Positions 9,001 to 63,391 of a stretch of DNA of 64,000 nt are shown piece after piece; within the stretch, counting starts at the first letter, position 1, and every line of letters begins with the position of its first letter. The DNA lies in assembly GCA_028712255.1 (NCBI GenBank), contig JAQTQJ010000005.1, positions 20,950 through 84,949 on the forward strand, given 5' to 3'. Made by a program: the position numbers and the translations under genes. The notes below the pieces were generated by a model. The model worked only from the letters and a program-made list of their open reading frames with translations, ran no database searches and was not told where the DNA came from. The stretch is from Candidatus Omnitrophota bacterium. GTDB taxonomy: Bacteria; Omnitrophota; Gorgyraeia; Gygaellales; Profunditerraquicolaceae.

Positions 9001-12000
9001 TTTAGTAGGGACGGTTCTTGCTCTAATTGGTAAGCTGTCCCTTAAAAGGGGCACTTCTAGCTTTGACACAAGAAACGACCCTAAAAATGTACCGCCTTTC
9101 GTTTTTATATCAGATAAATTCACTTCGCGCGAGAAGCAATTGATTCAAAAAATAACAGCCGAAGTTATTGGTTTGCTTGTCCCTCAAGAGAAGCAGCAAA
9201 AACTAGCCCTACACCCACTTTTTTTCAAGAGAGTGAATGCGTTTGATGTGCTTGTGGATCATAAATTCATATGTACTTTGTACATTCTCAGTGTGTTAAT
9301 TATGTCAGTCGTGAACATCATACTAGGCAGAGATTTATTTTTTAATATTACGACATATCTAGTTGTAGTAGCAATATTATGGGTTGTCATAAACTATAAG
9401 TTCTATAGTTCGGATTTTTCGTATTATATTCAAGGAATAAGGAGGAGGCATAAAATTCTTATTGGCTCTTATATATTTGATGAGCAACTGGTCTCTATGG
9501 TAGCGCATGAAATGTATCATTATCTGAATTCCATTGGTTTAATTAAAAATCCTGATTTAACAACAGCTTTTGACATGCTTTTTACTTTGGAACACTTTGG
9601 GGAAGAAGCTCTTGATGATCATGATTGGTTGGAAGCTGGAGAGATACTTATGGGGATTCCAAATCCGGAAGTTAGGGAAAAAATTTTGTTAAAAACTGCA
9701 AGAATCAGCAGGTTTGCTTTATTGATGAGAAAAGTTTTCGGGTATTTACCTGAGAGATCATGGGGATATATGTATGGGCGCCTCCAAGCAGCCAATGCTT
9801 ATGCATTATCGAGTGTTTTGAATGGCCCACAAGAGGTCAGTTTTATTGCTCGGGATGCCTTGGAATACATAATATTACGCGTCCATGGCTATGAGCCTGG
9901 CGCGGCAGAAGAAACCATTAGAACATATATAAATAATAGGAACAGTTCTGCTTCCATTGGAAAACCCCATCACCTGCGCCCCGTTACGCAGTGGTTGGCT
10001 GGCCAGATTCTCAGGATTGTTGCTCGTCAAAAAGATAATATTTTCTTTAAAGTCTATCGGGAAACCTACAATGCCAACTTAGCCTACATTCAAGAAATCA
10101 ATGGCAACCGAGGCCCGCCTATATTAAAGAAATTTCTTGCTTTTACTCGCCCCATTGCCCGCGGCCTTACTCCTGATGGCGCTATCTGTTGGCTTATTCC
10201 GGTTAAATTTACTACTCAAGAATACCTTTCCGATGAAACCATTGCCTCTATTAGTAAACACGAATCCCAATCTACAGAATTAGAAGGCTTAATCGCGCAG
10301 TATAAATTAGGGACAGTTCTGAAACCAATAGAGAACCGTTTCTCATTTAAGGGGCATTTTAGTTTCGGCTCAATAATCGTCTTCAATAGTTTTTTGAGGC
10401 GCCTGTTTATTTTAGCGGCATTTATAAGTTTAGGAATAGGGCTTTTTTATGCCGCGAGCATAAGCGGGTTGATGAATTGGTATTTGGAAATAAAGGGAGT
10501 TATTCCTGAAGGCTCTTTGATAGGCTCGCCGAAAGCCATATTATTAGATATGCTCACGGGGGTATTGATTTGGGGCTTGCCTGATTTAGCCGGGCAGTAT
10601 TTAAAAGGCAGCCGCATAATATTAAAACAGGCCTTTATTTTGGCTTTTGCCGGTTTCTTTATCGGCGCCCTTTTGCATTTACTTTATAATTTTCCCGAGG
10701 CCGTTCTTCCCTATTTTATGTCACTTTTGGCAAGCAATATCCTGTTGGCAAAAGTGGCAGCCATAGGCGTTGTCCTGGTGATCGGCGTAGGCATCGCCGT
10801 AAGTTATGGCCGCCTCATCTCTTATTTAAAAGCTAATTTCAGAAAAGAAGAGGAAACCGGCAGAGGAATAGAGGCTTTGAAACTTTATGAAGTGCTCTTG
10901 TATAAACTTTTTGTAACTCCAGTTGTTTTAATTTTCATCGTTTTAACGTTTGAGCCGGTATTGCGTGTATTAGTTTCATTGCCTGTTGAAATAATAAAGA
11001 TGATACCGGTAGGGTACCTTATGAACCGTAGAGAGCCGCTTTTTATCACAGGTATTATTCAAAATATTGCTAGGTTTAAGCATTCTGTTGGATATGCCCG
11101 CGGGCGCAAGGATGTTTCTTCTATGCTTGATTCTCAAACTACAAGCGGCCCGGTAAATGGGGACGCTCCCCAAGGGGACACCCTTTATTGCAGCATTATT
11201 CCGGTTGACCCCGCATTATTGGCGCGTTGGGGTAAGCTATTAGCAGGGATACTTCTTAAGCTAATCGAAAAAGTGTCCTGTATCCGTGAAGGGGACAGGT
11301 TCAGCTTTGGTGTAAGAAGCGTCCTTAAATCTATAGGTATCGTAGCGGTTTTTGTGGGCAGCGCTTTTATGATGGCGCATGGGTTAAAGTCAACTGCCGG
11401 CACTGAAGGCTCTTTTGATGTGTATAGTTATATAGTAATTTTTGCCGTTAGTTTTTTAGCAGTATTGTATTGCGTGCTGTTCTTAGGGGCAGCGCTAATA
11501 AACGCTATGACAGATGAATCCGCCAAGAGGGCTTTTGAGAATCAATCTCTCGGGGTATATTATTTGAACCGTGGGGAATACAAAATGGCAAGCTGGTATT
11601 TCAGAAGGGCTGTAGAGTTTGCTCGTAATAGCAGAAAAGACAAATTCCGTTCCGCGTTGGTTGTGGAGAATGTTATGATGGAGGTTTCACGGACAGATTT
11701 CGTAAAAGCATGTGAGCGCGCGCTGGATGCGATACGCAGGTATTTAGATTTAGGCCAGGCCAGAAAAGCAGCTGATATAAAGGTAGGCATTGATAATTCA
11801 ACAACTACAATTATAGCGAGAGAAAACGTGAGGCAGCATGGCCCATTTATGGTTACAAATGAAGAGCCTTTTTCTCATGGCTGTCTGCAATCAGAAATAG
11901 TAAACGCCGATGATCCCTGCGTGCAAAGAATATTAACTGGCGCTTTCGGCGGATTTAACGCCAACAGCCGCTATTACCTTCTCTTTGGCCATTTAGATAT

Positions 12001-22337: not shown

Positions 22338-22394
22338 GCAGAACAAACATAAGCATAAGTAAGGACCGTCTGTTTTTATCTATTTGTAGATTAA

Positions 22395-23005
22395 TTAGTT
22401 CCAACGGAACGGTTCCGTTCTTTGAAAAGCTTGTTAGAAATATCTTCTTTCTCCGTCTATTGTCTTAGGAGGGAGGGTATATGGCAAGACAAGAGAGAAT
22501 TTACTTTGAGAATGCTGTTTACCACATAACAATAAGAGGTAATAATAAACAAAATATCTTGAAGCAAGACGAGGATAAAAAAAGTTTTCTTGAGTCTTTA
22601 GTAAGATTCAAATCTCGTTTTGGATTTAAGCTCCACGCTTTCGTTTTAATGGATAACCACGTTCATCTTATTATTGGGACTAACAGTAAGATAAATATAT
22701 CAAAGATTATGCATGCCATAACGCTGTCTTACAGCGTTAAGTTTAGGAGAAAGTATCTTTATTCTGGATACGTTTGGCAGGGAAGGTTCAAAAGTAATGT
22801 CATTGATGGTGATAGATATATTATTGAATGTTTAAACTATATCCATAACAATCCCGTAAGGGCAGGCATGGTTACAAGGGTCGAAGATTACTTTTGGAGT
22901 AGTTATCAATTTTGCAATGGATTAGAAAATAAAATTAAAGATTATATTCAGATAGATTGGTTTAAGGATAATTAAAAAGGGGACAGTTCCTTTGGAACGT
23001 TATAT
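22395..23005 (+). mobile_element. RAYT unit: tnpA(REP)-like gene bracketed by short palindromes, 22403-22419 aacggaacggttccgtt and 22979-22999 ggggacagttcctttggaacg.
   Basis: The hairpins share the GGGGAC(A/G)GTTC core with the dispersed hairpin family found elsewhere in the window. Confidence 0.6.
22481..22975 (+). CDS. REP-associated tyrosine transposase (RAYT, IS200/IS605 TnpA-like, HUH family).
   Basis: Motifs NAVYHITIRGNN, FVLMDNHVHLII (HUH), YVWQGRF (catalytic Tyr region) and NYIHNNPV. RBS ggagggagggtatATG. Flanked on both sides by GGAAC/GTTCC hairpins. Confidence 0.85.
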   Translation: MARQERIYFENAVYHITIRGNNKQNILKQDEDKKSFLESLVRFKSRFGFKLHAFVLMDNHVHLIIGTNSKINISKIMHAITLSYSVKFRRKYLYSGYVWQGRFKSNVIDGDRYIIECLNYIHNNPVRAGMVTRVEDYFWSSYQFCNGLENKIKDYIQIDWFKDN

Positions 23006-23786
23006 ATACCAAAAAGTTAGAAGGAAACGGTGCTGTGTAATAGATTATGCAAAAAATCTTCTTCAACAAGCTGAGATTTCTAGAGCAGGCAATTTAACAT
23101 TTATATTACATAGCGAAGCTAACAATGTGGCTTTTGATGGGATTTCTAGTATAGTTGATGACGCTAGAAAGAAAGGGATAAAAATCAATATTGTTAGCAT
23201 CGGATCACCGTCTCCATTTAGGACTATTGATTACCTTAAATTTTTAAAGCAGAATAAAGACATTGTAAGGTATGAAAATTTCGTTAATACAGCTGATCCT
23301 ATTGCTTGGTTGAGTCTGTCATTTTTGAATCCAGATACGCATTATATTCTTGGTTTAGATTTTATAGGAGCGCATGGGAGTTATTTTTCAGACTCAGGTG
23401 TAAGGCAAACCGCACTTTCAATGGCTACAGGAGTAAATATTCCTATTGGTTACTCTAATTTTTCTACTGGTTCTTTTTCTGATCCTTATTTTTCTGGTAC
23501 TTTTAGCGTGCGAGAGACAGTTATTTATCCTTCTCCAGATGTAAGAATTACCCAAACAAATATTACATCTAATTATGGTTCAAATTACCAGATTTTTTCG
23601 AATTCAAGTATTCCGTCTACTCAATTTGTTGCACCGCAACCATTTAATTCTTCATCAAATTATCAGGTGCCAGATTTTAGTTCTTGGAATGGTAGTAGTT
23701 TTAAACCTCTCCCAAGTATTGATTTTTCTCCGCCTAGTATTAGCATGCCCTCGAGTCCTATTCAAAGACCGGGTAATGGACCTTAA
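22992..23786 (+). CDS. Hypothetical protein with a Ser/Pro/Asn-rich C-terminal half. Start uncertain; TTG at 22992 per the ORF track.
   Basis: 264-aa ORF directly after the RAYT gene. No recognisable domain. Low-complexity S/P tail. Confidence 0.35.
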   Translation: MERYIYQKVRRKRCCVIDYAKNLLQQAEISRAGNLTFILHSEANNVAFDGISSIVDDARKKGIKINIVSIGSPSPFRTIDYLKFLKQNKDIVRYENFVNTADPIAWLSLSFLNPDTHYILGLDFIGAHGSYFSDSGVRQTALSMATGVNIPIGYSNFSTGSFSDPYFSGTFSVRETVIYPSPDVRITQTNITSNYGSNYQIFSNSSIPSTQFVAPQPFNSSSNYQVPDFSSWNGSSFKPLPSIDFSPPSISMPSSPIQRPGNGP

Positions 23787-33455: not shown

Positions 33456-33535
33456 GTGTCATTGCGAAGAGCCAAGCGACGAAGCAATCTTTTATTAGAT
33501 TGCTTCGTCCGCCTTCGGCGGACTCGCAATGACAC
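33456..33535 (+). repeat. Family II palindromic element, copy 4.
   Basis: gtgtcattgcgaagagccaagcgacgaagcaatc...gattgcttcgtccgccttcggcggactcgcaatgacac. Confidence 0.8.
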
Positions 33536-33554
33536 AAGCATATTTAAAAAATCA

Positions 33555-34787
33555 GTGAAAAAATATTATTTTCTCGTCTTTGCGCTAATTTTTACGGTTA
33601 TCACCAGTATTTCCTGCGCCCCTTCTCCCAAGGTTTTTATTAAACAACTCAAAAACCAGCATTATCAACTTATCGTTAACGGTCGCCCGTATGTTGTCAA
33701 AGGGGTTTGTTATAACCCAATCCCGATAGGCCAGAATCATGAATATGATTGGTGGAGTGATCCGAATAAGCCCTGGATTGTTGACGGGAAACTTATGAAG
33801 GATATGGGGGTTAATACTATTCGTCTTTATCAAGCGCATGATAATCCTGAGGAGGTAAAACAAGTAATTCGAGACCTGTATAATTTGTATGGAATCCGTA
33901 CTCTTTTAGGTGATTGGTTGGGCTTCTGGGAGTATCCCTGCCCTTTTTATGGTGACAAAAAATTTCAGGATAAGGTAAAGGCCCAGGTATTGGAGATGGT
34001 TAATCTCTATAAAGATGAACCCGGAATTTTAGGCTGGATTTTGGGAAATGAGAATAATTATTCCTGCCTTGGACATGTAAATCCCTGGTCAAGCCCAGAG
34101 GTTGATCAAGAACCTGATCCACAGAAACAAAAATTGATGCGTGCAAAAATTTATTATTCTTTTGTAAATGATTTATCTAAGGAAATACATAAGGTTGACC
34201 TAAAGCATCCTGTAGGATTGGGTAATGGCGAATTAGTAGGTTTAGATTCTGCCAATAAATTTTGTCAGGATGTTGATTTTGTAGCCTGTATAATTTACCG
34301 TGGTAAAACCTTCGGCAACCTTTTTAATTCCCTCAAAGCAACATTTGATAAGCCGATGCTGTTAGCAGAATTTGGCGCGGATTGTTATGATGCTTATCTT
34401 AAGAAGGAAGATCAAAATATGCAGGCGTTTTTCTTGCAATCACAGTGGGAGCAGATTTACAAAAACTTAGCCAATAAAAAAGAAGGCGTAGGTAATTGTA
34501 TAGGCGGAACAATTTTTGAATGGGTGGATGAATGGTGGAAATATGCTTCTGATAATCCGCAAGGATGGAAAGTTCATAATACCGAGAGCGGTTGGTCTAA
34601 TGGAAGCTATTATTTTGATATCCGCGCACAAAATAATATGAATATGAATGAAGAATGGTTTGGTATTGTTGCATTAGGAGAGCAGTTGGAAAACGGTTTA
34701 AATAAGCGCATACCGCGTAAGGCTTATTATGTAATTAGGGAGTTTTGGAAGAATCCGGTAGTTAAAAAAACGCGTAAGAAGAAATAA
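33555..34787 (+). CDS. Clan GH-A glycoside hydrolase paralog. Start tentatively GTG 33555, because the ORF 5' part lies in a repeat element.
   Basis: NTIRLYQ, ILGNENNY, LLAEFGADCY, FEWVDEWWKY. Lipoprotein-like N-terminus ...ITSISCAP. Confidence 0.6.
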   Translation: MKKYYFLVFALIFTVITSISCAPSPKVFIKQLKNQHYQLIVNGRPYVVKGVCYNPIPIGQNHEYDWWSDPNKPWIVDGKLMKDMGVNTIRLYQAHDNPEEVKQVIRDLYNLYGIRTLLGDWLGFWEYPCPFYGDKKFQDKVKAQVLEMVNLYKDEPGILGWILGNENNYSCLGHVNPWSSPEVDQEPDPQKQKLMRAKIYYSFVNDLSKEIHKVDLKHPVGLGNGELVGLDSANKFCQDVDFVACIIYRGKTFGNLFNSLKATFDKPMLLAEFGADCYDAYLKKEDQNMQAFFLQSQWEQIYKNLANKKEGVGNCIGGTIFEWVDEWWKYASDNPQGWKVHNTESGWSNGSYYFDIRAQNNMNMNEEWFGIVALGEQLENGLNKRIPRKAYYVIREFWKNPVVKKTRKKK

Positions 34788-34791
34788 AACA

Positions 34792-34838
34792 AAGGGGACG
34801 GTTCTCTTAAAAAAGAGAACCGTCCCCTTTATTTTTAA
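34792..34838 (+). terminator. Terminator / REP-like hairpin aggggacggttctc-ttaaaaaa-gagaaccgtcccct + TTATTTTT.
   Basis: 14-bp perfect stem followed by a T-tract. Confidence 0.7.
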
Positions 34839-34850
34839 GACGGAGGCCGT

Positions 34851-36416
34851 ATGACAGTTTTCTTAAAATACTTATTGACAATTTTTTTAAGTTTATTTTT
34901 ATGCCTGCCTTCACTTTACTCTGTTGAGCAGACAAGCTGTTCTTCTATTGAAGAATCCAAGATAAAATATTTGGCAGTCAATCAGTATAATGAATTTATT
35001 GACTTCCTCAGCAATTTTAAAGAGAAAGATTTAGTTAACCAGCTTTGTCTTAATTATTATAAAGCGCAAGCGCGTTACCTGCAACTTAAGTATTTAGAAG
35101 AAAAGCAATCCTGGGATGATTATTTTACTAATGGCAACAGCTATCGCCAGCAGTTAGAGCAGAGCGCCCAGAAAGTTATCAGCCAGGCTCAAACCGATAA
35201 TCCCTTAAGGCTAAAAGCCAGGCTTTTACTTTGGCAATACCATCACGGCCAGCAGGATGTTCTTGCTCAGGCTGCCTTAGATGACCTGCTTACAGACGTT
35301 GGCGCTTATGCTAAAGATGAAAGAAATCCGGGGTTAATTAAAAATATTGCCGATACTCTTTTGGCTGGCGAAGAAAAGTCAAAGGCCCGCCAAATCTATA
35401 AACTTTATGTCGACCAGCTTATCGCAGGCGAGATTACTGATGCGCAGCTCAAAAGCATAGCAGGCGCTTCCTATAAGGAAGGCAATGTAGAATTAGCCGA
35501 GGTTCTTTATAATATTTATATAAATATTTGTATAGAAAAGATTTCAAAAACTCTTGAACCGGAAAAATTTATCCAGGAGTTATTTGAAGTTGCCAGCCTT
35601 TTCGTCTATAAGCCGCAAGGTTTATATGATATGGCTTATGCTGAAGAAATCTATTCCAAGATAGAAGGGTTAGGCAAAGCAGATGTTTTTAACCAGACGA
35701 CAATCTACTTGCGCGCATTTAACTTAGAGAAACTAAGAGATTATAAGGGGGCAATAAAACTTTATCTGCAGTTGATCCAGCTTTATCCCGACAGTAAAAT
35801 TTTTGACGAGGCCAATTATAAAATTGCTATGATTAATGCGTATGTATTCTCTAATATAAAAGAAGCAAAAAAATACTTTAATATACTTGCGGCAAAACAA
35901 GAGTTTAGTCCCCATGTTATTTCCAGTTTATACCAGTTAGGGTTGTTGGCGCAATGGGAAGGGGATTTAGTCAAAGCCAAAGAGTATTATGAGCTATTGT
36001 TGAAGAATGCTGTAGATCAATACCCTTCAGTTGTTGACCGGGCTAAGGAAAGGCTCAAGGAAATCCAGGAAAATAAACAGCTCGACTACAATTTAAAAAC
36101 ATTTTTAGACCTTTGTTTTAAAAATGAAAATTCTCTCAGTGAAATGGGCAAAGCAGAATTGAAATCTTCAAGTTATGTATTAAAAAAAGGAGAGCCGGTT
36201 ACAGTTTTCTCTTCTGTTAATATGCCTCAGAGTGGCTGCAACCAGGTCCAATTGCAGTATCTCTGGAGCGGTGATATAGGTGATGTTATTTCCCCGGTAA
36301 ACAATGATAGTCTTCAATGTAACTATTCCGATCCCGGGACAAAAGCAATAAATATGGTTACGATTTCACCTTCAGGGACTATAGACCGTTCTTTTACCAT
36401 GGTGGATGTCTATTAA
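34851..36416 (+). CDS. Secreted alpha-helical (TPR-like) protein; hypothetical.
   Basis: Signal peptide and helical repeat composition. Followed by a strong terminator hairpin. Confidence 0.4.
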   Translation: MTVFLKYLLTIFLSLFLCLPSLYSVEQTSCSSIEESKIKYLAVNQYNEFIDFLSNFKEKDLVNQLCLNYYKAQARYLQLKYLEEKQSWDDYFTNGNSYRQQLEQSAQKVISQAQTDNPLRLKARLLLWQYHHGQQDVLAQAALDDLLTDVGAYAKDERNPGLIKNIADTLLAGEEKSKARQIYKLYVDQLIAGEITDAQLKSIAGASYKEGNVELAEVLYNIYINICIEKISKTLEPEKFIQELFEVASLFVYKPQGLYDMAYAEEIYSKIEGLGKADVFNQTTIYLRAFNLEKLRDYKGAIKLYLQLIQLYPDSKIFDEANYKIAMINAYVFSNIKEAKKYFNILAAKQEFSPHVISSLYQLGLLAQWEGDLVKAKEYYELLLKNAVDQYPSVVDRAKERLKEIQENKQLDYNLKTFLDLCFKNENSLSEMGKAELKSSSYVLKKGEPVTVFSSVNMPQSGCNQVQLQYLWSGDIGDVISPVNNDSLQCNYSDPGTKAINMVTISPSGTIDRSFTMVDVY

Positions 36417-36436
36417 CCTGGATTCCGCTGAAAACT

Positions 36437-36495
36437 AGGGACCGTTTCTATTTTTTTTAAAAAAAATAGAAACGGTCCCTTTCCTTTTTTTGTTT
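36437..36495 (+). terminator. Terminator / REP-like hairpin gggaccgtttcta...tagaaacggtccc + TTTCCTTTTTTT. An inverted half-site tagaaccgccccc lies at 36510-36523.
   Basis: 13-bp stem with an AT loop, followed by a T-tract. Confidence 0.65.
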
Positions 36496-36636
36496 TAAAA
36501 ACAAACAAAAAATAGAACCGCCCCCTTAGATTTAAACATTCACTTTTCTTGAAATCGCTTGACTTAAGAGTTTTTTAGTAGTACAGTAAAATTAATATTT
36601 TATTTAACTTTTTAGAAAGCTAAGTAATTTTATATT

Positions 36637-40258: not shown

Positions 40259-42583
40259 ATGGATTTAAAATTATCCCCCAATGCCGTCAAGGTTCTTGAG
40301 CGCAGGTATTTACGCAAGGACCAGGGGGGCTCGCTCATCGAGACCCCGGAGCAGTTGTTCGTTCGTGTAGCAGGCGCTATTGCTATTGCGGACAAACTTT
40401 ACGGGGCAGGAGAGCAGGAGCTAAAGCTTCTTACGGATTCATTTTTTAAGATGATGGTTAATTTAGAATTTTTGCCGAATTCTCCCTGTTTAATGAACGC
40501 GGGAAAAGAATTAGGGCAACTCTCAGCTTGTTTTACCCTTCCCATTGAAGATTCAATGGAGTCGATTTTTGAGACCTTGAAGGTCACTAGCCTTATTCAT
40601 AAATCCGGCGGCGGCACAGGTTTTAATTTTTCTCGCCTGCGCCCTAAAAATGCCGTAGTTAAAACTACAGGTGGCGTAGCAAGCGGGCCGATTTCATTTA
40701 TGCGTGTATATGATGCGGCAACTGAGGCGGTCAAACAAGGGGGAACCCGACGCGGGGCAAATATGGGGATCTTGCGCGTCGACCATCCGGATATTATGGA
40801 GTTTATTACTTGCAAGGAGAATAATAATCATATTACTAACTTTAATATTTCCGTTGCCATTACTGATGAGTTTATGCGTAGGCTTGCTCGCGGCGAAGAT
40901 TATGATTTGATTGATCCGCACACGCATAAGCCGGTGCAGAAAATCAATAGTAAGGATGTATTTAATCTAATCGTAAAACAGGCGCACAAAAATGGCGAGC
41001 CCGGAATTATTTTCATTGACCGTATTAATCAATATAATCCTACTCCAAAATTAGGGGAAATTGAAAGTACTAATCCTTGTGGCGAACAACCGCTTTTGCC
41101 TTATGAAAGTTGCGATTTGGGTTCGATAAATTTAGACCAGATGTTTAAGAAGGTTGGTACGCGTTGTGAAATTAATTGGGACAGGTTAAAAGAGGTTACA
41201 TCTTTAGCCGTACATTTTCTGGATAATTTAATTGATGTAAATAAATTTCCTCTTCCGGAAATTGAGCAGGCTACCAAGGCTACCCGTAAAATCGGCTTAG
41301 GGGTTATGGGTTGGGCGAGTTTATTGATTCGCCTGAATATTCCTTATAATAGCGAAGAGGCTGTGAATTTGGCTGAAAAAGTAATGTCATTTATTTTAGA
41401 TGAAGCAAATAAAAAATCCTTGGAGTTAGGGAAAAAGAAGGGTGTATTTCCTGCTTTTAAAGAAAGTATTTATGATAGAAAAGACGGTTCGACCAGAATG
41501 CGCAATGCTACGCTGACTACCATTGCTCCTACCGGAACCATTAGTATCATTGGCGGGCCATGTTCATCGGGAATCGAGCCTTTGTTTGCGTTATCATATT
41601 ATCGCAAAGTTATGGATAATGATAAATTAGTGGAAGTAGAGCCACTATTTGAACAGGTTGCCCATCAGAGGGGATTCTATAGTTTGAAGCTTATGGAGAA
41701 GGTTGCTGAGAGCGCGTCCATAAAAGATATTAAAGAGATTCCTGAAGATGTGCGCAGAGTTTTTGTAACTAGCCATGATATTGCTCCGGAGTGGCATGTG
41801 CGTATGCAGGCAGCTTTTCAGAAATATGTGCATAATGCCACAAGCAAAACAATTAATTTTCCGCATGAAGCAACTATTGAGGAAGTACGAAAATCTTATA
41901 TTATGGCATTTGATTTAGGCTGTAAAGGCATAACTATTTATCGTGACAGGAGCCGTGAAGAGCAGGTATTAAATGTTGGTAAGCCTAAAGAGAAGCAAGA
42001 AGAACAGGCAAAACACCTTGGCCTATCGGAAGGCCAAGTGTTCGCTCGTGCGAAAGAGATTGCCCCCCGTCCGCGTCCGGAAGTAATTATCGGTACGACT
42101 ACTAAGGTTTCGACCGGTTGTGGCAATCTTTACGTAACTATAAATATCGATGAAGACGGTAAACCGTTTGAGTTATTTACCCAGATGGGTAAAGCCGGAG
42201 GCTGCGCAGCCAGCCAGCTGGAAGCAACCGGACGCCTAGTTTCTTTGGCATTTCGCGCCAACATTGAAGTAAAATCTATTATTGAGCAATTGCGTAATAT
42301 TCGCTGTCCATCTCCTTCCTGGGAAAAAGGGCAGAGAATATTTTCTTGCGCTGATGCTATTGCCCGGGTTATCGAGCGGCGCCTTATAAATACGCAGCCA
42401 GCTGTTATTGTATCATCAGAATCGGTGACTATTCCTATGAAGCATTCACATGATGACCAGCTACAGTCATCGGATTTAGATGAGCAGGTAAATATCGTCG
42501 GCATGTGTCCTGATTGTGGAGGTGCTTTGCGTCACGAGGAAGGCTGTGTTAAGTGCCACGGCTGCGGTTATTCTAAGTGCTAA
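40259..42583 (+). CDS. nrdJ: Class II adenosylcobalamin-dependent ribonucleotide reductase.
   Basis: NPCGEQPL active-site region. C-terminal Cys cluster CPDCGG...CVKCHGCGYSKC. Overall RNR class II architecture. Confidence 0.9.
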   Translation: MDLKLSPNAVKVLERRYLRKDQGGSLIETPEQLFVRVAGAIAIADKLYGAGEQELKLLTDSFFKMMVNLEFLPNSPCLMNAGKELGQLSACFTLPIEDSMESIFETLKVTSLIHKSGGGTGFNFSRLRPKNAVVKTTGGVASGPISFMRVYDAATEAVKQGGTRRGANMGILRVDHPDIMEFITCKENNNHITNFNISVAITDEFMRRLARGEDYDLIDPHTHKPVQKINSKDVFNLIVKQAHKNGEPGIIFIDRINQYNPTPKLGEIESTNPCGEQPLLPYESCDLGSINLDQMFKKVGTRCEINWDRLKEVTSLAVHFLDNLIDVNKFPLPEIEQATKATRKIGLGVMGWASLLIRLNIPYNSEEAVNLAEKVMSFILDEANKKSLELGKKKGVFPAFKESIYDRKDGSTRMRNATLTTIAPTGTISIIGGPCSSGIEPLFALSYYRKVMDNDKLVEVEPLFEQVAHQRGFYSLKLMEKVAESASIKDIKEIPEDVRRVFVTSHDIAPEWHVRMQAAFQKYVHNATSKTINFPHEATIEEVRKSYIMAFDLGCKGITIYRDRSREEQVLNVGKPKEKQEEQAKHLGLSEGQVFARAKEIAPRPRPEVIIGTTTKVSTGCGNLYVTINIDEDGKPFELFTQMGKAGGCAASQLEATGRLVSLAFRANIEVKSIIEQLRNIRCPSPSWEKGQRIFSCADAIARVIERRLINTQPAVIVSSESVTIPMKHSHDDQLQSSDLDEQVNIVGMCPDCGGALRHEEGCVKCHGCGYSKC

Positions 42584-42663
42584 AATCTAGGGGACGGTTC
42601 TATTTTTCTGCCGTCTAGTTGAGTAGGAAAATAGAATTGCCCCCCTTGTTTTTCAATATCCCC

Positions 42664-47289: not shown

Positions 47290-47378
47290 GATCCTTCGTC
47301 GCTTCGGTCATATCTAGGGCTCTTCAGGATAAATGCGCCTCTAATTAAAATAATTGGCGCATTTAGTTTTACTTACAT
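47290..47378 (+). promoter_or_regulatory. Conserved 3'/intergenic dual-hairpin element: GATCCTTCGTC...TCAGGATAAAT followed by hairpin aaatgcgcc/ggcgcattt and a TTTTACTTACA box. Copy A, after phoR.
   Basis: Relatives at 48194-48266, 58521-58618 and 61325-61423. The ATCCT/AGGAT arms and the AAAT...ATTT stems are conserved, while the loop sequences vary. Confidence 0.45.
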
Positions 47379-48190: not shown

Positions 48191-48328
48191 AAAGATCTTT
48201 CGCTAACGCTTTAGGATAAATGCGCCCGTATGTTAAAAAATTATAGCGCATTTAATTTTACGTAGATTTAACATTGGTTTGGTATAAATAAGGTATAATA
48301 TACAGTAAAGATAAATGGAGGATTTAAA

Positions 48329-53201: not shown

Positions 53202-53933
53202 TTGGAGTTTAGGTGCATGAAAAATAAAATTGTTTTCTGGATCAAGAAACAGATTAAGGATTCTGGGGCCAAGGGTATTGTGATGGGGCTTTCCGGAGGG
53301 ATAGATTCTGCCGTAGTGGCTGCTTTGTGTAAAGAGGCAGTAGGTAAGAATAATATGCTGGTCCTATTTATGCCTTGTAATAGTAATATACAGGATCTAA
53401 AGGATGCTCGATTAGTTGCCAGGAAGTTTAATCTTAAATCAAAGCTGGTAGACCTTTGCGGCGTATATAATGATTTCTTAAGAGTTCTGCCTCAGGCAGG
53501 AGGCTTAGCCAGAGGGAATCTTAAGCCCCGCCTGCGTATGAGCACGCTTTATTATTTTGCTAATAAGCTAAATTACTTAGTATGCGGAACAGGAAATAAA
53601 TCTGAACTTATGGTTGGGTATTTCACCAAATATGGCGACGGCGGAGTGGATATTTTACCGATTGCGGATTTATTCAAGCGCCAGGTGCGTCAACTTGCGC
53701 AGGAGTTGAAGATACCGCAAAATATTATTACCAAGCCGCCTACTGCCGGGCTTTGGCAGGGGCAGACTGATGAAGGAGAGATGGGGATAACTTATAATGA
53801 ACTGGATGATATCTTAGATAGGTTTTGTAATAATCGAAAACAGATTGTTGGTAGCAGTAAAATTAACAAGGTAAAAAGAATGTACAAAAATTCAGAGCAT
53901 AAACGAAAAGGTGCGGATATTTGCCGCATTTAG
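53202..53933 (+). CDS. nadE: NH3-dependent NAD+ synthetase.
   Basis: PP-loop GLSGGIDSAVVAAL. YGDGG motif. Confidence 0.85.
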   Translation: MEFRCMKNKIVFWIKKQIKDSGAKGIVMGLSGGIDSAVVAALCKEAVGKNNMLVLFMPCNSNIQDLKDARLVARKFNLKSKLVDLCGVYNDFLRVLPQAGGLARGNLKPRLRMSTLYYFANKLNYLVCGTGNKSELMVGYFTKYGDGGVDILPIADLFKRQVRQLAQELKIPQNIITKPPTAGLWQGQTDEGEMGITYNELDDILDRFCNNRKQIVGSSKINKVKRMYKNSEHKRKGADICRI

Positions 53934-53947
53934 CTGGAGGAGCCAGA

Positions 53948-54433
53948 ATGGATGAGATCTTAGAGATTTTAGAAAAAGATGGCCGGGCAAGTATAGAAGA
54001 TATTGCCAAGATGACCTGCAGGAAGCCTGAGGACGTTAAAAAAGCGATTAAGAAATACGAAAAAGAGGGAGCAATTTTAAAATATAAGGCAGTAATTAAC
54101 AAGGATTTGGTTAGAGATAATGAATCTGAGGTTAGGGCTTTAATTGAAGTGAATATCGTTCCGCAGAAGGATCTGGGTTTTGAGAAGATTGCCGAGCGCA
54201 TCTATTCGTTTCCTGAGGTCACTAGCTGTTATTTAATCAGCGGCACATATGATTTACTGGTGGTTGTAGAAGGTAAGAATTTGCATACGGTTTCCAATTT
54301 TGTGGCAGAGAAGCTTTCCTGTTTAGAAAATGTGCGCGGCACAGCGACACATTTTTTATTAAAGAAATACAAGGAAGACGGAGTAATCCTGAAGCAGAAG
54401 TCGGAGAATAAGAGGATAGCGATATCCTATTAA
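53948..54433 (+). CDS. Lrp/AsnC family transcriptional regulator.
   Basis: N-terminal HTH (ILEILEKDGRASIEDIAKMT) plus a RAM domain. Confidence 0.75.
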   Translation: MDEILEILEKDGRASIEDIAKMTCRKPEDVKKAIKKYEKEGAILKYKAVINKDLVRDNESEVRALIEVNIVPQKDLGFEKIAERIYSFPEVTSCYLISGTYDLLVVVEGKNLHTVSNFVAEKLSCLENVRGTATHFLLKKYKEDGVILKQKSENKRIAISY

Positions 54434-54435
54434 AC

Positions 54436-54500
54436 AAGCTGTCAGCTGTAAGCGGTAAGTTTTAAGCTTACAGCTTATAACTTAAAGCTTATGGCTTAGT
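54436..54500 (+). repeat. Family III palindromic element (GTAAGCGG.AAGTTTTAAGCTTACAGCTTATAACTTAAA core).
   Basis: Related copies at 60886-60952 and 62910-62976. Nested inverted repeats ctgtaagc/gcttacag. Confidence 0.65.
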
Positions 54501-54518
54501 TTTTAGGGCCTATAAAAA

Positions 54519-55688
54519 ATGAAAGATCTTATTTCAAAAAAAGTTCAAGTTATGCAGCCATCCGGAATTCGGGCGTTCTTTGATTTAGTGCTTGGGATGA
54601 AGGATGTTATATCTTTGGGCGTAGGTGAGCCGGATTTTGTTACTCCTTGGCAGATTCGTGAAGCGGGAGTTTATTCTCTGGAGCAGGGGTTTACCAGTTA
54701 TACCTCAAATAAGGGGTTGTATAAACTGCGTTTGGGGATCAGCCGTTTTTTAAAAAATAAATATGGTTTAGATTATTGCCCGGATGAAGAAATATTAATT
54801 ACGGTAGGAGTTAGTGAAGGTTTGGATTTGCTCATGCGGGCGATAATTAACCCCGGTGATAAAATACTGGTTCCACAGCCAAGTTATGTTTCATATGGGC
54901 CGATTACAGAGCTTGCAGGGGGTACTCCGATTTATATCGATACTTCCAAAGATGGTTTTAAAATTACCCCTAAACTTTTGGAAAAACATATTGATAAGAA
55001 AACCAAAGGAATTGTTTTGAATTATCCCACTAATCCTACTGGAGTTTCTTATCGGCGTAAGGAATTAGAAGAGATAAATAAAGTTTTATTGAAGCATAAA
55101 ATACTTTGTATCAGCGACGAGGTTTATGGCGATTTAACCTACGATTTTGAACATGTTGCTTTTTCGACTTTGTCTGGAGCAAAGAAAAATACGGTTTATT
55201 TTAACGGATTTTCCAAATCCTATGCGATGACCGGCTGGCGGGTGGGTTTTGCTTGCGGCCCGAAAGAGATTATCGCGGCGATGACCAAGATTCATCAGTA
55301 TACGATTATGTGCGTGCCAATTACCAGCCAAATGGCAGCGGCAGAAGCTTTGATTAGCGGCGCAAGATCAGTTGAGCAGATGAAACGCGAATATAATCGC
55401 CGGAGAGAGCTTATGGTATTTGAGTTAAATTCTTTAGGATTAAAATGTTCTCGGCCGCAAGGGGCTTTCTATGTTTTTCCTTGTATTAAAAGTACAGGAT
55501 TAAGTTCAATTGAATTTTCGCGCAAGCTGCTGGAAGAAGAAAAGGTGGCGGTTGTTCCAGGCACGGCTTTTGGTACAAGCGCAGAAGGTTATATTAGAAT
55601 CTCTTATGCTTCTAGTATGGATAATTTAAAAGAAGCTTTAGTTCGCGTGAGGAGATTCTTGGATAAAATAAAACTTAAACCTAGGTAG
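54519..55688 (+). CDS. Class I/II PLP-dependent aminotransferase (aspartate aminotransferase-like).
   Basis: PLP-lysine motif FNGFSKSYAMTGWRVGF. Confidence 0.85.
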   Translation: MKDLISKKVQVMQPSGIRAFFDLVLGMKDVISLGVGEPDFVTPWQIREAGVYSLEQGFTSYTSNKGLYKLRLGISRFLKNKYGLDYCPDEEILITVGVSEGLDLLMRAIINPGDKILVPQPSYVSYGPITELAGGTPIYIDTSKDGFKITPKLLEKHIDKKTKGIVLNYPTNPTGVSYRRKELEEINKVLLKHKILCISDEVYGDLTYDFEHVAFSTLSGAKKNTVYFNGFSKSYAMTGWRVGFACGPKEIIAAMTKIHQYTIMCVPITSQMAAAEALISGARSVEQMKREYNRRRELMVFELNSLGLKCSRPQGAFYVFPCIKSTGLSSIEFSRKLLEEEKVAVVPGTAFGTSAEGYIRISYASSMDNLKEALVRVRRFLDKIKLKPR

Positions 55689-57762: not shown

Positions 57763-57997
57763 CAGTAGTAAAAGGTATGGTATGCTTTAATTAGATTACA
57801 GCGTTGTAGTAAAAGACACAGAAGTCTTCTAGGCGGTTAGGTTTGCTTAGGAGGCTTTTTGTTGGTCAGGACTAAGGCGTCCTTACCCGATAAAAGGGTG
57901 AGGACGTTTTTTATTGTACGGGAGATTAGTATATCTAGTAGGGACTGTCCCACGACAAGTTAAGTATAATTTGCTGCTAACGAAAAAAGGAATAGCA

Positions 57998-58656: not shown

Positions 58657-58686
58657 GGCGTTCTATGAAAATAGAGCGCCTTTTTT
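58657..58686 (+). terminator. Leader intrinsic-terminator-like hairpin (ggcgttctat gaaa atagagcgcc + TTTTTT) between the promoter motif and the OM-protein gene.
   Basis: 10-bp stem followed by a T6 tract. Further hairpin/T-tract structures at about 58697-58716 and 58770-58800. Confidence 0.45.
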
Positions 58687-62998: not shown

Positions 62999-63340
62999 AT
63001 GAAACTAGTGATTGCTATAATTCAACCGTATAAGCTAGAAGAAGTAAAGGAGGAGCTGTATAAGGTAGAAGTAAACCTGATTACCGTAAGCGAAGTTTTA
63101 GGCCATGGCCGCCAGAAAGGTATCACTGAAGTCTACCGCGGTTCTAAAGAAACCGGGAATCTCCTGCGAAAAATCCGCCTTGAGATTGCCGTAAACGATA
63201 ATTATCTTGAACCGACAATCAAGGCAATTGTTAAAGGCGCCAAAACCGGTGAAACCGGAGATGGAAAAATATTTGTCCTCGATCTTAAAGAATGCATCCG
63301 TATCCGCACTGAAGAACGCGGGGCAGTGGCGATAGGGTAG
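62999..63340 (+). CDS. glnB: P-II nitrogen regulatory protein, copy 2. Identical nucleotide sequence to copy 1.
   Basis: Exact duplicate of 60975-61316. Confidence 0.9.
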   Translation: MKLVIAIIQPYKLEEVKEELYKVEVNLITVSEVLGHGRQKGITEVYRGSKETGNLLRKIRLEIAVNDNYLEPTIKAIVKGAKTGETGDGKIFVLDLKECIRIRTEERGAVAIG

Positions 63341-63345
63341 GAAAA

Positions 63346-63391
63346 CCAGGTGACGGTTCTCTTTCTTAAGAGAACCGTCACCTGGTTTTTA
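63346..63391 (+). terminator. Rho-independent terminator / REP-like hairpin ccaggtgacggttctc-tttcttaa-gagaaccgtcacctgg + TTTTT.
   Basis: Perfect 16-bp stem followed by a T-tract. Member of the GGGGACGGTTC hairpin family. Confidence 0.7.

Follow-up and report, generated by a model that had tools for sequence, protein, structure and literature searches.

Terminator-like hairpins with a shared GGGGAC-tagged core in a Candidatus Omnitrophota genome are probably REPIN-like doublets of the RAYT/TIRYT kind

Why do the strongest terminator-like hairpins of one stretch of bacterial genome, each standing behind a different gene, share a sequence? The stretch, here called the window, is 64 kb of DNA from a Candidatus Omnitrophota MAG, and it holds four such hairpins (H1 to H4) that have the arm (G)GGGAC(G/C)GTT(T)CT in common. 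H1 (34786-34835) is a palindromic doublet, AAAGGGGACGGTTCTCTT-aaaa-AAGAGAACCGTCCCCTTT, between a GH5-like ORF (33456-34787) and a TPR ORF (34851-36416); a repeat search of the window gave its arms, 34786-34808 and 34813-34835, as 23 nt long and 96% complementary. H2 (36437-36480), 3′ of the TPR ORF, is a perfect 22-bp palindrome, AGGGACCGTTTCTATTTTTTTT / AAAAAAAATAGAAACGGTCCCT, whose arms (36437-36458 and 36459-36480) were 22 nt long and 100% complementary in the same search. The imperfect doublet H3 (42590-42644), GGGGACGGTTCTATTTTTCT ... AGGAAAATAGAATTGCCCCC, lies between a ribonucleotide reductase gene and mnmG, with arms at 42590-42609 and 42625-42644 (20 nt, 80% complementary, 15-nt loop), and H4 (63342-63389), 3′ of a P-II (glnB-like) gene, is a perfect 22-bp doublet, AAAACCAGGTGACGGTTCTCTT / AAGAGAACCGTCACCTGGTTTT, with arms at 63342-63363 and 63368-63389 (22 nt, 100% complementary). 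H1, H2 and H4 are the top three of the longest perfect hairpins of the window. Folded as RNA, the four reached -32.8, -29.8, -29.5 and -40.5 kcal/mol, respectively, with z-scores against shuffles of -7.2, -8.1, -5.4 and -8.3. The ORFs ahead of them (33456-34787, 34851-36416, 40259-42583 and 62999-63340) are all on the + strand, so oriented that each hairpin is transcribed in sense, with 3-25 nt from stop codon to hairpin, and every hairpin is followed by a T-run, H1 ending in CCCCUUUAUUUUU, H2 in CCCUUUCCUUUUUUU, H3 in CCCCCCUUGUUUUU and H4 in CCUGGUUUUU.

All four hairpins of the original prediction are thus present after stop codons and with T-rich runs, the weak one at 42590-42644 instead of 42588-42617. 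The left arm that they were said to share proved to be over-represented: GGGACGGTTCT at up to two mismatches occurs 24 times in the window against 7.8 +/- 2.3 expected, and none of 100 shuffles reached 24. Exact matches lie at 9008, 34795, 34816 (minus strand) and 42591, and the density of arms is about 8 per 64 kb. The predicted extra half-site exists as a solo arm, tagaaccgccccc, at 36513-36525 rather than 36510-36523; it is a right arm on the minus strand (TAGAACCGCCCCC) with an A-run ahead and without a left partner, it contains a one-mismatch motif match at 36514-36524 (minus strand), and folding gave no stable hairpin there (-7.4 kcal/mol). Two degenerate inverted pairs within the giant ORF 59-21796 are of uncertain membership: GGGACGGTTCT ... 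AGAAACGACCC at 9008-9081 folds at -29.2 kcal/mol (z -3.1), and GGGACAGTTCT ... AGAACCGTTTC at 10310-10342 at -12.2 kcal/mol (z -2.8). Exact-protein look-ups of two window proteins found no record. The hairpins with shared sequence are a genuine repeat family in the window.

H1 to H4 have the layout of intrinsic terminators, with a stable hairpin, a GC-rich base and a U-run downstream of a gene, and from their position, stem strength and T-run it is plausible that they also terminate transcription. A strong G-C stem base generally favours termination. The T-run may merely belong to the palindrome, since an A-run is mirrored on the other side. Position, stem strength, T-run and favourable G-C stem base would equally fit intrinsic terminators of the ordinary sort that arose where they stand and resemble one another through local duplication or convergent selection of a GGGG/CCCC stem base beside the U-tract, without any mobile element. 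Against such an origin, and against a terminator role as well, the stem mismatches of the family carry no mark of strand-specific selection at the RNA level, there being no excess of G-U over A-C on the transcribed strand (G-T versus A-C, 5 versus 4 in ++ contexts and 7 versus 5 in -- contexts). In H3, on the + strand, G-U wobbles make up 3/4 of the non-Watson-Crick positions.

The distribution of the core also argues against evolution in place. Palindromic doublets of GGGGACGGTTCT were found at at least 120 genome loci in about 10 phyla, 3′ of unrelated genes, and the GG adjoining the 12-nt core, which was outside the search pattern, is 95-96% conserved. The doublets occur as genome-specific families, as tandem arrays and as in-frame insertions. 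Family copies tend to stand downstream of genes, in contexts that were convergent in 27 cases, tandem in 37 and divergent in 7, which suits a terminator role; many copies in other phyla, however, are without a T-run, which weakens it. A local stem of at least 5 bp around the motif was present in 49% of 106 arms as against 7% with permuted partners, a feature that the window's own arms show only weakly. All-against-all clustering of the ORFs of the 120 loci returned common families only (ABC ATPases, two-component systems, aminotransferases), as would be expected if the transposase is single-copy. A scan of eight family loci against Rfam 15 (E <= 1) gave only generic sub-threshold miRNA-precursor matches, a full-text literature search for the motif as DNA and RNA returned unrelated primers only, and a keyword search for repeat or terminator families retrieved nothing specific. 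Viral contigs had the doublet in 10 stretches, compared with 4 and 0 in two composition-matched shuffled controls, which is no useful enrichment and provides no link to phages.

A candidate mobilizing gene lies 12 kb upstream of the hairpins. The ORF at 22481-22975 (+ strand, 164 aa) encodes a REP-associated tyrosine (Y1, HUH) transposase with the HUH motif NHVH and the catalytic tyrosine in YIHNNP; H60, H62 and Y120 are invariant in the transposase alignment (A1). The protein scores 65 bits against Pfam PF01797 (Y1_Tnp) and 95 bits, over a cut-off of 80, against NCBIfam NF047646 ('REP-associated tyrosine transposase'), but 32.6 against the IS200 model, under the cut-off of 55. Its 670 homologues include many named as Omnitrophota transposase or RayT, and it matches the RAYT of locus L022 at E 4.7e-27 (tblastn). 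The gene is single-copy and stands among housekeeping genes. No C-terminal HTH extension (Bac_DnaA_C, HTH_23, HTH_28) was found in the window protein, which appears to be a short relative, as its 164 aa end soon after the Y motif.

Both ends of this gene carry repeats. On the left (22362-22416), AGGACCGTCTGT (22362-22373) and GGAACGGTTCC (22406-22416) are decayed positional homologues of the intact AAGACCGTTTCTA and AGAACTGTCCCC that stand upstream of the genes in loci L139, L140, L219 and L220. On the right (22979-23034), GGGGACAGTTCC (22979-22990) begins 4 nt 3′ of the transposase stop codon and is followed by TAGAAGGAAACGGTGCT (23018-23034); AAAGGGGACAGTTCCTTT in this flank shares 15 of 18 positions with the H1 arm AAAGGGGACGGTTCTCTT, and GGGGACAG agrees exactly with GGGGWSAS, the TIR tag known from the literature. 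Judged from its flanks, the window transposase gene has copies of both arm variants, in decayed form, around it.

The four related loci, which encode Omnitrophota-type homologues of 63-87% identity, each possess an outer repeat pair. These outer repeats, AAGACCGTTTCTA...TAGAAACGGTCTT, or more fully the inverted repeat A(A/G)GACCGTTTCT(A)...TAGAAACGGTC(C/T)T, are the arms of H2. The inner repeats, AGAACTGTCCCC...GGGGACAGTTCT, are the arms of H1, H3 and H4 save for one base; both were found in L139, L140 and L219, and the upstream one alone was seen in L220. Three arm types can be told apart, an outer type (GGACCGTTTCT), a G type (GGGGACGGTTCT) and an A type (GGGGACAGTTCT), and the tag varies as GGGGACGG, GGGGACAG, GGGGTCAG and others.

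Beyond this clade, the motif is found inverted around RAYT-type genes in Oribacterium, in a Clostridiales MAG and on many metagenome contigs. In the Oribacterium locus (L074) the transposase gene (976-1725) lies between two perfect doublets identical to three further dispersed copies within the same 8 kb, and the gene of L022 is flanked by inverted motif arrays; both proteins have a C-terminal extension, with weak HTH matches in L074. Exact GGGACGGTTC stands within 130 nt upstream of the transposase gene in 10 of 80 metagenome loci encoding homologues, and its complement within 110 nt downstream in 8 of 80, where about 0.01 would be expected. GGGWC is present in 27 of the 39 metagenome loci that have an inverted repeat of at least 9 nt spanning the gene, and in many independent loci the motif precedes the Y1 gene at a fixed spacing of about 60-90 nt. 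Comparison of these loci shows a link between the repeat family and RAYT-type genes, with the repeats inverted around the gene both in the window and in several phyla; such a link is difficult to reconcile with terminators that arose in place.

The one base that separates the inner repeats from the dispersed arms bears on which enzyme moved them. Position 7 of the motif is G in H1, H3 and H4 (GGGGACGG) and A (GGGGACAG) in the flanking repeats of the window transposase clade, in 5 of 5 loci seen; the flank in L140 also reads GGGGACAG. No A-type doublet (GGGACAGTTC...GAACTGTCCC) was found in all the sequence searched, so H1, H3 and H4 may have been mobilized by a different, HTH-bearing TIRYT whose gene lies outside the window, elsewhere in the genome.

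Synteny provides a further view of mobility. At the orthologous H1 junction, two syntenic relatives (L121 and L123) have 3-12 nt and no hairpin; because the site is empty in both, H1 is read as an insertion, and the comparison shows that at least one copy has been inserted relative to syntenic relatives. The position of H1 is inside an apparent operon in the relatives, a point against a terminator role. An orthologous H2 hairpin, GGGGACGTTTCTA...TAGAAACGTTCCC, is present in L122, and at the orthologous H3 site the relatives carry other GGGGAC-initiated hairpins. Such hairpins at the same intergenic sites would favour terminators evolved in place; the empty H1 site, the arrays and the in-frame insertions speak against them, and we regard that origin as quite unlikely.

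The hairpins are, in our assessment, probably REPIN-like non-autonomous doublets of the RAYT/TIRYT kind, presumably spread by such enzymes. An inverted repeat with a conserved end could also belong to MITEs derived from a DDE transposon of conventional type, with GGGGACGGTTCT as 12-bp terminal inverted repeats and the Y1 gene nearby by coincidence. One copy has a MITE-like appearance, an in-frame inserted unit in Muribaculaceae (L031) with the motif exactly at both ends and an internal hairpin. However, no target-site duplication was found at any family copy examined, the palindrome mostly extends past the motif, DDE transposase genes show no enrichment around the copies, and the Y1 gene recurs at its fixed spacing in many independent loci; we give MITEs very little credence. 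Still harder to credit are DNA-uptake-type or other protein-binding signals comparable to the Neisseria DUS, whose inverted pairs double as terminators. A conserved 12-mer in inverted pairs at gene ends, occasionally in frame inside genes, is what such signals would look like, but the arms are sparse (about 8 in 64 kb), the identical core occurs in phyla without shared known uptake machinery, nested palindromes and tandem arrays occur, and the link to Y1 transposase genes is specific. The Y1 association, the absent target-site duplication and the variable loops are misfits for several other candidates that were considered and rejected: a tRNA-like acceptor/T-arm minihelix (7+5 bp), a Mini-III or RNase III site, a CsrA or SD-like loop, an integron attC and iterons, as well as for the DNA-uptake sequence and the DDE MITE.

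If the hairpins are REPIN-like doublets, each element would be a pair of short repeats, inverted relative to one another, that share the core (G)GGGAC(G/C)GTT(T)CT, and the enzyme would be supplied by RAYT/TIRYT genes, which encode single-copy Y1 (HUH) tyrosine transposases, kin of the IS200/IS605 TnpA. By analogy with TnpA of IS200/IS605 and with TnpA-REP of E. coli, the enzyme would bind the folded single-stranded hairpin, cut beside a short tag, with GGGGAC... in place of GTAG, and rejoin the element elsewhere. We know of no TIRYT for which transposition or cleavage has been demonstrated. In this AT-rich genome, each element would bring a stem of 18-22 bp that is GC-rich at its base and stands between an A-run and a T-run, so that a copy landing 3′ of a gene could serve at once as an intrinsic terminator, probably one that works in both directions, or as a 3′-end stabilizer. 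More tentatively, and with doubt prevailing, all GGGGACGGTTCT elements might belong to a single pan-bacterial population of REPIN-like 'portable terminators', whose invariant 12-nt core would be recognized and cleaved by a conserved clade of TIRYT/RAYT enzymes.

The question posed by the locus would then have a simple answer: the likeness of the strongest terminator-like hairpins comes from their being copies of one selfish palindromic element. For annotators, an apparent operon is here interrupted by the recent insertion H1. RAYT/TIRYT genes are now tied to a repeat that has a GGGGAC tag and a 12-nt core kept across phyla; for these genes, published surveys reported no REP-like structures, or modest repeat families only. 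If the elements terminate reliably, they would offer a natural supply of compact bidirectional terminators and would illustrate how mobile DNA can reshape the transcription units of uncultured phyla, Omnitrophota among them. Should the pan-bacterial reading be true, it would represent the first direct link between the transposases of subclass 2.1 / RAYT group 1, with their short relatives, and genome-wide repeat populations in about 10 phyla, including in-frame protein insertions and arrays with a 21-nt period.

With IS200/IS605 elements, the window system shares the Y1 HUH catalytic core (PF01797) and, presumably, chemistry on single-stranded hairpin DNA; unlike theirs, the gene is single-copy among housekeeping genes, and the repeats multiply without it. 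Neisseria DUS pairs and the pneumococcal SPRITE are other repeats with a second role as terminators or with in-frame insertions. Rickettsia palindromic elements (RPEs; also cited in PMC3733652) resemble the family in the in-frame copies of L031, and DUS, SPRITE and RPEs all resemble it in having shared sequence inside terminator-like hairpins at gene ends, but these are lineage-specific and have no link to a Y1 transposase gene.

Classical REP/REPIN elements with RAYTs were reportedly described in E. coli and Pseudomonas (Nunvar 2010, Bertels & Rainey 2011, Ton-Hoang 2012; see also PMC5581495). The window family is like them in its short, dispersed, mostly extragenic palindromes downstream of genes, in inverted doublets that fold into one long hairpin, in a single-copy Y1 gene between inverted copies, with a one-base A/G difference between flanking and dispersed arms, and in termination and mRNA stabilization as proposed side roles. 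No GTAG/GTGG tetranucleotide was found 0-2 nt 5′ of the hairpins, the arms starting (A)AAGGGGAC or CCAGGTGAC. Classical REPs are genome-specific over the full palindrome, whereas in the present family it is the surrounding stem that varies, and the tag and the bases next to it are kept from phylum to phylum; the copy density in the window is also modest by comparison. The original prediction of REP-type elements therefore stands in a broad sense, given a RAYT gene in the window with arm relatives on its flanks, a motif that also flanks RAYT-type genes in other phyla and an H1 site empty in two relatives, but not in the sense of the classical GTAG REP.

The closest match is with TIRtrons and their TIRYTs (TIR-associated tyrosine transposases), defined by the tag GGGGWSAS (Di Nocera et al. 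2013, PMC3733652) and equated with TnpA-REP subclass 2.1 / RAYT group 1 (Quentin et al. 2018, PMC6006769). Some TIRs belong to moderately abundant dispersed families, as dimers or clusters (PMC3733652), REP-like structures were not seen beside subclass 2.1 genes (PMC6006769), and Omnitrophota do not appear to be among the hosts surveyed in either. Subclass 2.1 / RAYT group 1 transposases are very widespread and of obscure function. Unlike the description of subclass 2.1 by Quentin et al., many arms here are themselves stem-loops; unlike TIRtrons, the dispersed arms of the window (GGGGACGG) depart by one base, a G for an A at tag position 7, from the consensus that the right flank of the transposase gene fits, the conserved core reaches 12 nt, and the window enzyme is short (164 aa) and without the HTH extension. 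The likeness lies in a Y1/HUH gene, inverted repeats at a roughly fixed distance and the tag GGGG[AT][CG]A[CG], and the C-terminal HTH that typifies subclass 2.1 occurs in the long homologues of L022 and L074. By sequence comparison, the window elements match the published TIRYT/TIRtron class, an element type already known.

Four hairpins with a shared motif lie in the window where the original prediction had placed them, three of them essentially perfect palindromes and one imperfect. Repeat searching and folding gave H1 (34786-34835; 23-nt arms, 96% complementary, -32.8 kcal/mol as RNA) and H2 (36437-36480; 22-nt arms, 100% complementary, -29.8 kcal/mol). The imperfect H3 (42590-42644) has 20-nt arms, 80% complementary, around a 15-nt loop (-29.5 kcal/mol as RNA), and H4 (63342-63389) has fully complementary 22-nt arms (-40.5 kcal/mol as RNA). 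RNA folding z-scores for the four range from -5.4 to -8.3, and a scan of the window for perfect stems of at least 9 bp ranks H1, H2 and H4 as its longest three. Each starts 3-25 nt after a stop codon and is followed by a T-rich run; going from H1 to H4, the genes upstream encode a GH5-like protein, a TPR protein, a ribonucleotide reductase of class II type and a P-II protein. All annotated-size ORFs around them are on the + strand. That strand carries almost every ORF of 200 aa or more in the window, where GC skew is positive throughout (0.05-0.21), placing the whole window on one replichore with a strong gene-strand bias. Allowing up to two mismatches, GGGACGGTTCT occurs 24 times in the window against 7.8 +/- 2.3 in shuffled sequence, a count reached in none of 100 shuffles. 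A predicted solo arm also exists, but at 36513-36525 rather than 36510-36523.

The family is linked to transposase genes, both within the window and elsewhere. At the compared locus L022, a 258-aa ORF (SNHVHLV ... YVHQNP) lies between two arrays of the motif in inverted orientation; it matches Pfam Y1_Tnp, and its nearest NCBIfam entry is the REP-associated tyrosine transposase (RAYT). A tblastn search of all the collected sequences with this protein found two further genes. One, in Oribacterium (976-1725 of L074), sits exactly between perfect doublets at 795-820 and 1746-1771; the other is in the window, at 22481-22975 (E 4.7e-27). The 164-aa product of the window gene scores 95 bits against the curated NCBIfam cut-off of 80 for REP-associated tyrosine transposase and 65 bits against Y1_Tnp; the invariant histidines of the HUH motif and the tyrosine are retained. 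In a database search its exact sequence was not among the matches, the best being 87% identical, and the neighbouring TPR protein of the same Candidatus Omnitrophica MAG was matched at 100% (locus tag PHC29_03455, on a 118-kb contig); the gene may have been left uncalled in public annotation.

The flanks of this gene carry relatives of the hairpin arms. Four nt past its stop lies AAAGGGGACAGTTCCTTT, which shares 15 of 18 positions with the H1 arm, with TAGAAGGAAACGGTGCT farther downstream, and AGGACCGTCTGT and GGAACGGTTCC upstream. They are decayed forms of a nested double inverted repeat, which four homologues with 63-87% identity still have in largely intact form (L139, L140, L219 and L220, the last from an NCBI Omnitrophota MAG). 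The outer pair is present in all four; both inner repeats are found in L139, L140 and L219, and the upstream one alone was seen in L220. The outer repeat, A(A/G)GACCGTTTCT(A) ... TAGAAACGGTC(C/T)T, is identical in sequence to the H2 arms, and the inner repeat, AGAACTGTCCCC ... GGGGACAGTTCT, is the arm sequence of H1, H3 and H4 with A instead of G at position 7. The two hairpin variants of the original prediction thus match the outer and inner repeats around the genes of this transposase clade.

Metagenome contigs searched with a profile yielded 80 loci encoding homologues. In 11 of the 80, the coding strand carries exact GGGACGGTTCT at 57-94 nt upstream of the gene, and in five more at 139-182 nt upstream; the reverse complement follows just beyond the gene end. 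The exact 10-mer occurs within 130 nt upstream in 10 loci and within 110 nt downstream in eight, where about 0.01 would be expected. Exact inverted repeats of at least 9 nt span the gene in 39 of the 80 loci, 27 of these 39 with GGG(A/T)C, and clade-specific continuations in the flanks include GGGGACAG..., GGGGACGGGGTTGTTGACA, GGGGTCAGGCTTG (with 310-325-aa proteins) and GGGGACGCAACCC. The homologues are single genes amid housekeeping genes, many of them on very short contigs, which is to be expected where repeats bracket a gene.

Scanning 185,579 species genomes with GACGGTTCT-N0-30-AGAACCGTC gave at least 120 loci. Among the matches listed, G occupies each of the two positions just 5' of the searched core in 95-96% of arms, and the third position out has G in 73% and A in 23%; since these three bases lie outside the search pattern, nearly all the listed matches are true relatives, (G/A)GGGACGGTTCT, rather than hairpins formed by chance. 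Their hosts are mainly Bacillota (Clostridia, Lachnospiraceae, Neobacillus and relatives), with further matches in Bacteroidales, Omnitrophota (six loci), Actinomycetota, Elusimicrobiota, Atribacterota, Aminicenantes and one Planctomycetales MAG, and almost none in classical Proteobacteria. The copies of one genome form a family with its own stem sequence, as in Oribacterium, with five identical doublets within 8 kb, and in Coprococcus. A local stem of at least 5 bp brackets the motif in 49% of 106 arms versus 7% with permuted partners; in many cases a single arm is therefore a small stem-loop in its own right, and the doublet is a REPIN in architecture. Gene contexts among the matches listed (27 convergent, 37 tandem, seven divergent) show a preference for sites downstream of genes; no enriched neighbouring protein family was found around these copies, and a scan of eight loci of the family gave no matching Rfam family.

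Other arrangements of the motif occur. Tandem arrays have a 21-nt period in L022 (4450-4575 and 5700-5790) and L033 (5313-5530); with those at about 4810-4990 of L093 included, periods are 21-23 nt, motif orientation is constant and successive 9-nt spacers are by turns a sequence and its complement. Nested palindromes occur in L097. A Muribaculaceae MAG (JAFTDD010000077.1; L031 6951-8000) carries the motif in frame three times within a dihydrolipoamide-dehydrogenase-like ORF, translated G-D-G-S ... E-P-S-P; one insertion has its right half three times in tandem, in 42-nt units encoding RVIQLAAETQEPSP, recalling Rickettsia palindromic elements. In the window, a giant ORF typical of Omnitrophota (59-21796, + strand, 7245 aa) holds two degenerate in-frame inverted motif pairs (9008-9081 and 10310-10342) that read G-T-V-L and may be decayed insertions or a portion of a protein repeat.

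The window was compared with three syntenic relatives (L121, L122 and L123, about 70% protein identity). The GH5-like/TPR intergenic distance is 3 nt in L121 and 12 nt in L123, and H1, filling this junction in the window, is therefore an insertion; in L122 the junction holds an unrelated 170-nt palindromic element. The H2 site has a related hairpin in L122 (GGGGACGTTTCTA ... TAGAAACGTTCCC), a different one in L121 and none in L123, and other hairpins beginning GGGGAC occupy the H3 site in the relatives. The element at the L122 junction belongs to a second palindromic family, GTGTCATTGCGAG...CGAAGCAATC-loop-GATTGCTTCG...CTCGCAATGACAC, unrelated to the motif, also found elsewhere in L122 (for example at 5068 and 19252) and in six window copies (about 80 nt around each of 27806, 29811, 32215, 33480, 44563 and 45388), most of them at gene starts or intergenic. 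The window also contains an inverted repeat, ggaTAAATGCGC(C)-16/20 nt-(G)GCGCATTTA, at 47330-47365 and 48217-48254, about 80-170 nt upstream of ORFs 47534 and 48329, which may represent operators or a leader structure, and an imperfect 45-nt overlapping palindrome rich in AGCT/AAGCTTA (54426-54507), between ORFs 53921-54433 and 54519-55688.

The analysis establishes that the repeats form a family, that they accompany Y1 transposase genes in inverted orientation and that orthologous sites have gained or lost them. The chemistry we propose follows the established models IS200/IS605 TnpA and E. coli TnpA-REP; by analogy, the enzyme would work on folded single-stranded DNA and cut next to a short tag, so that doublets would be mobilized in trans. 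H2 exactly matches the outer flank repeat. Position 7 is G in the dispersed H1, H3 and H4 arms versus A in five of five flanks of the short transposase clade, which limits the claim that 22481-22975 encodes the enzyme that placed H1, H3 and H4. The enzyme may accept either base, or the genome may encode a second, G-type TIRYT elsewhere; G-type flanks go with homologues of 250-300 aa, and no A-type doublet was found among all sequences searched.

Co-option as terminators, also proposed in the original prediction, is plausible for H1-H4. All four lie just past genes, on the coding strand, and in this AT-rich genome the palindrome takes in an A-run at one end and a T-run at the other, so that every copy is built like a strong bidirectional intrinsic terminator. 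Against over-reading this role, the T-run may be just part of the palindrome, and it is absent from many copies in other phyla. Family-wide, G-U stem mismatches are not in excess over A-C on the transcribed strand, which fits palindromes at the DNA level better than maintenance at the RNA level; the sole case of such a bias is the sense strand of H3, with three G-U wobbles versus one A-C. Terminator-like sites without the motif are also present in the window (e.g. 57874-57910). A short terminator-like hairpin at 58657-58680, GGCGTTCTAT-gaaa-ATAGAGCGCC with a T-run behind it, may be a truncated relative: one of its arms is similar to the 3' half of the motif (ACGGTTCTAT).

The elements belong to a kind already known. 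RAYT-like genes with terminal inverted repeats (TIRs) rather than GTAG REPs have been named TIRtrons and their enzymes TIRYTs; the TIRs share the tag GGGGWSAS, and some are members of moderately abundant dispersed families, as dimers or clusters (Di Nocera et al. 2013, PMC3733652). TIRYTs have been equated with subclass 2.1, Bertels' RAYT group 1, long proteins with a C-terminal HTH, beside whose genes that study reported finding no REP-like structures (Quentin et al. 2018, PMC6006769), and the flanking 16-mers of group 1 are only modestly abundant (Bertels et al. 2017, PMC5581495). The window enzyme is short and lacks the HTH extension, so we refrain from placing it in subclass 2.1. So far as our search went, the new points are Omnitrophota as a host, the conservation of the 12-nt GGGGACGGTTCT core in about ten phyla, arms that are often stem-loops, and the arrays and in-frame insertions. 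The inverted association with Y1 transposase genes supports the REP-type reading of the original prediction in its TIRYT/GGGGWSAS flavour, a classification that the A/G difference at position 7 leaves unaffected: the window elements differ from classical REPs in having no GTAG, and share the defining features of TIRtrons.
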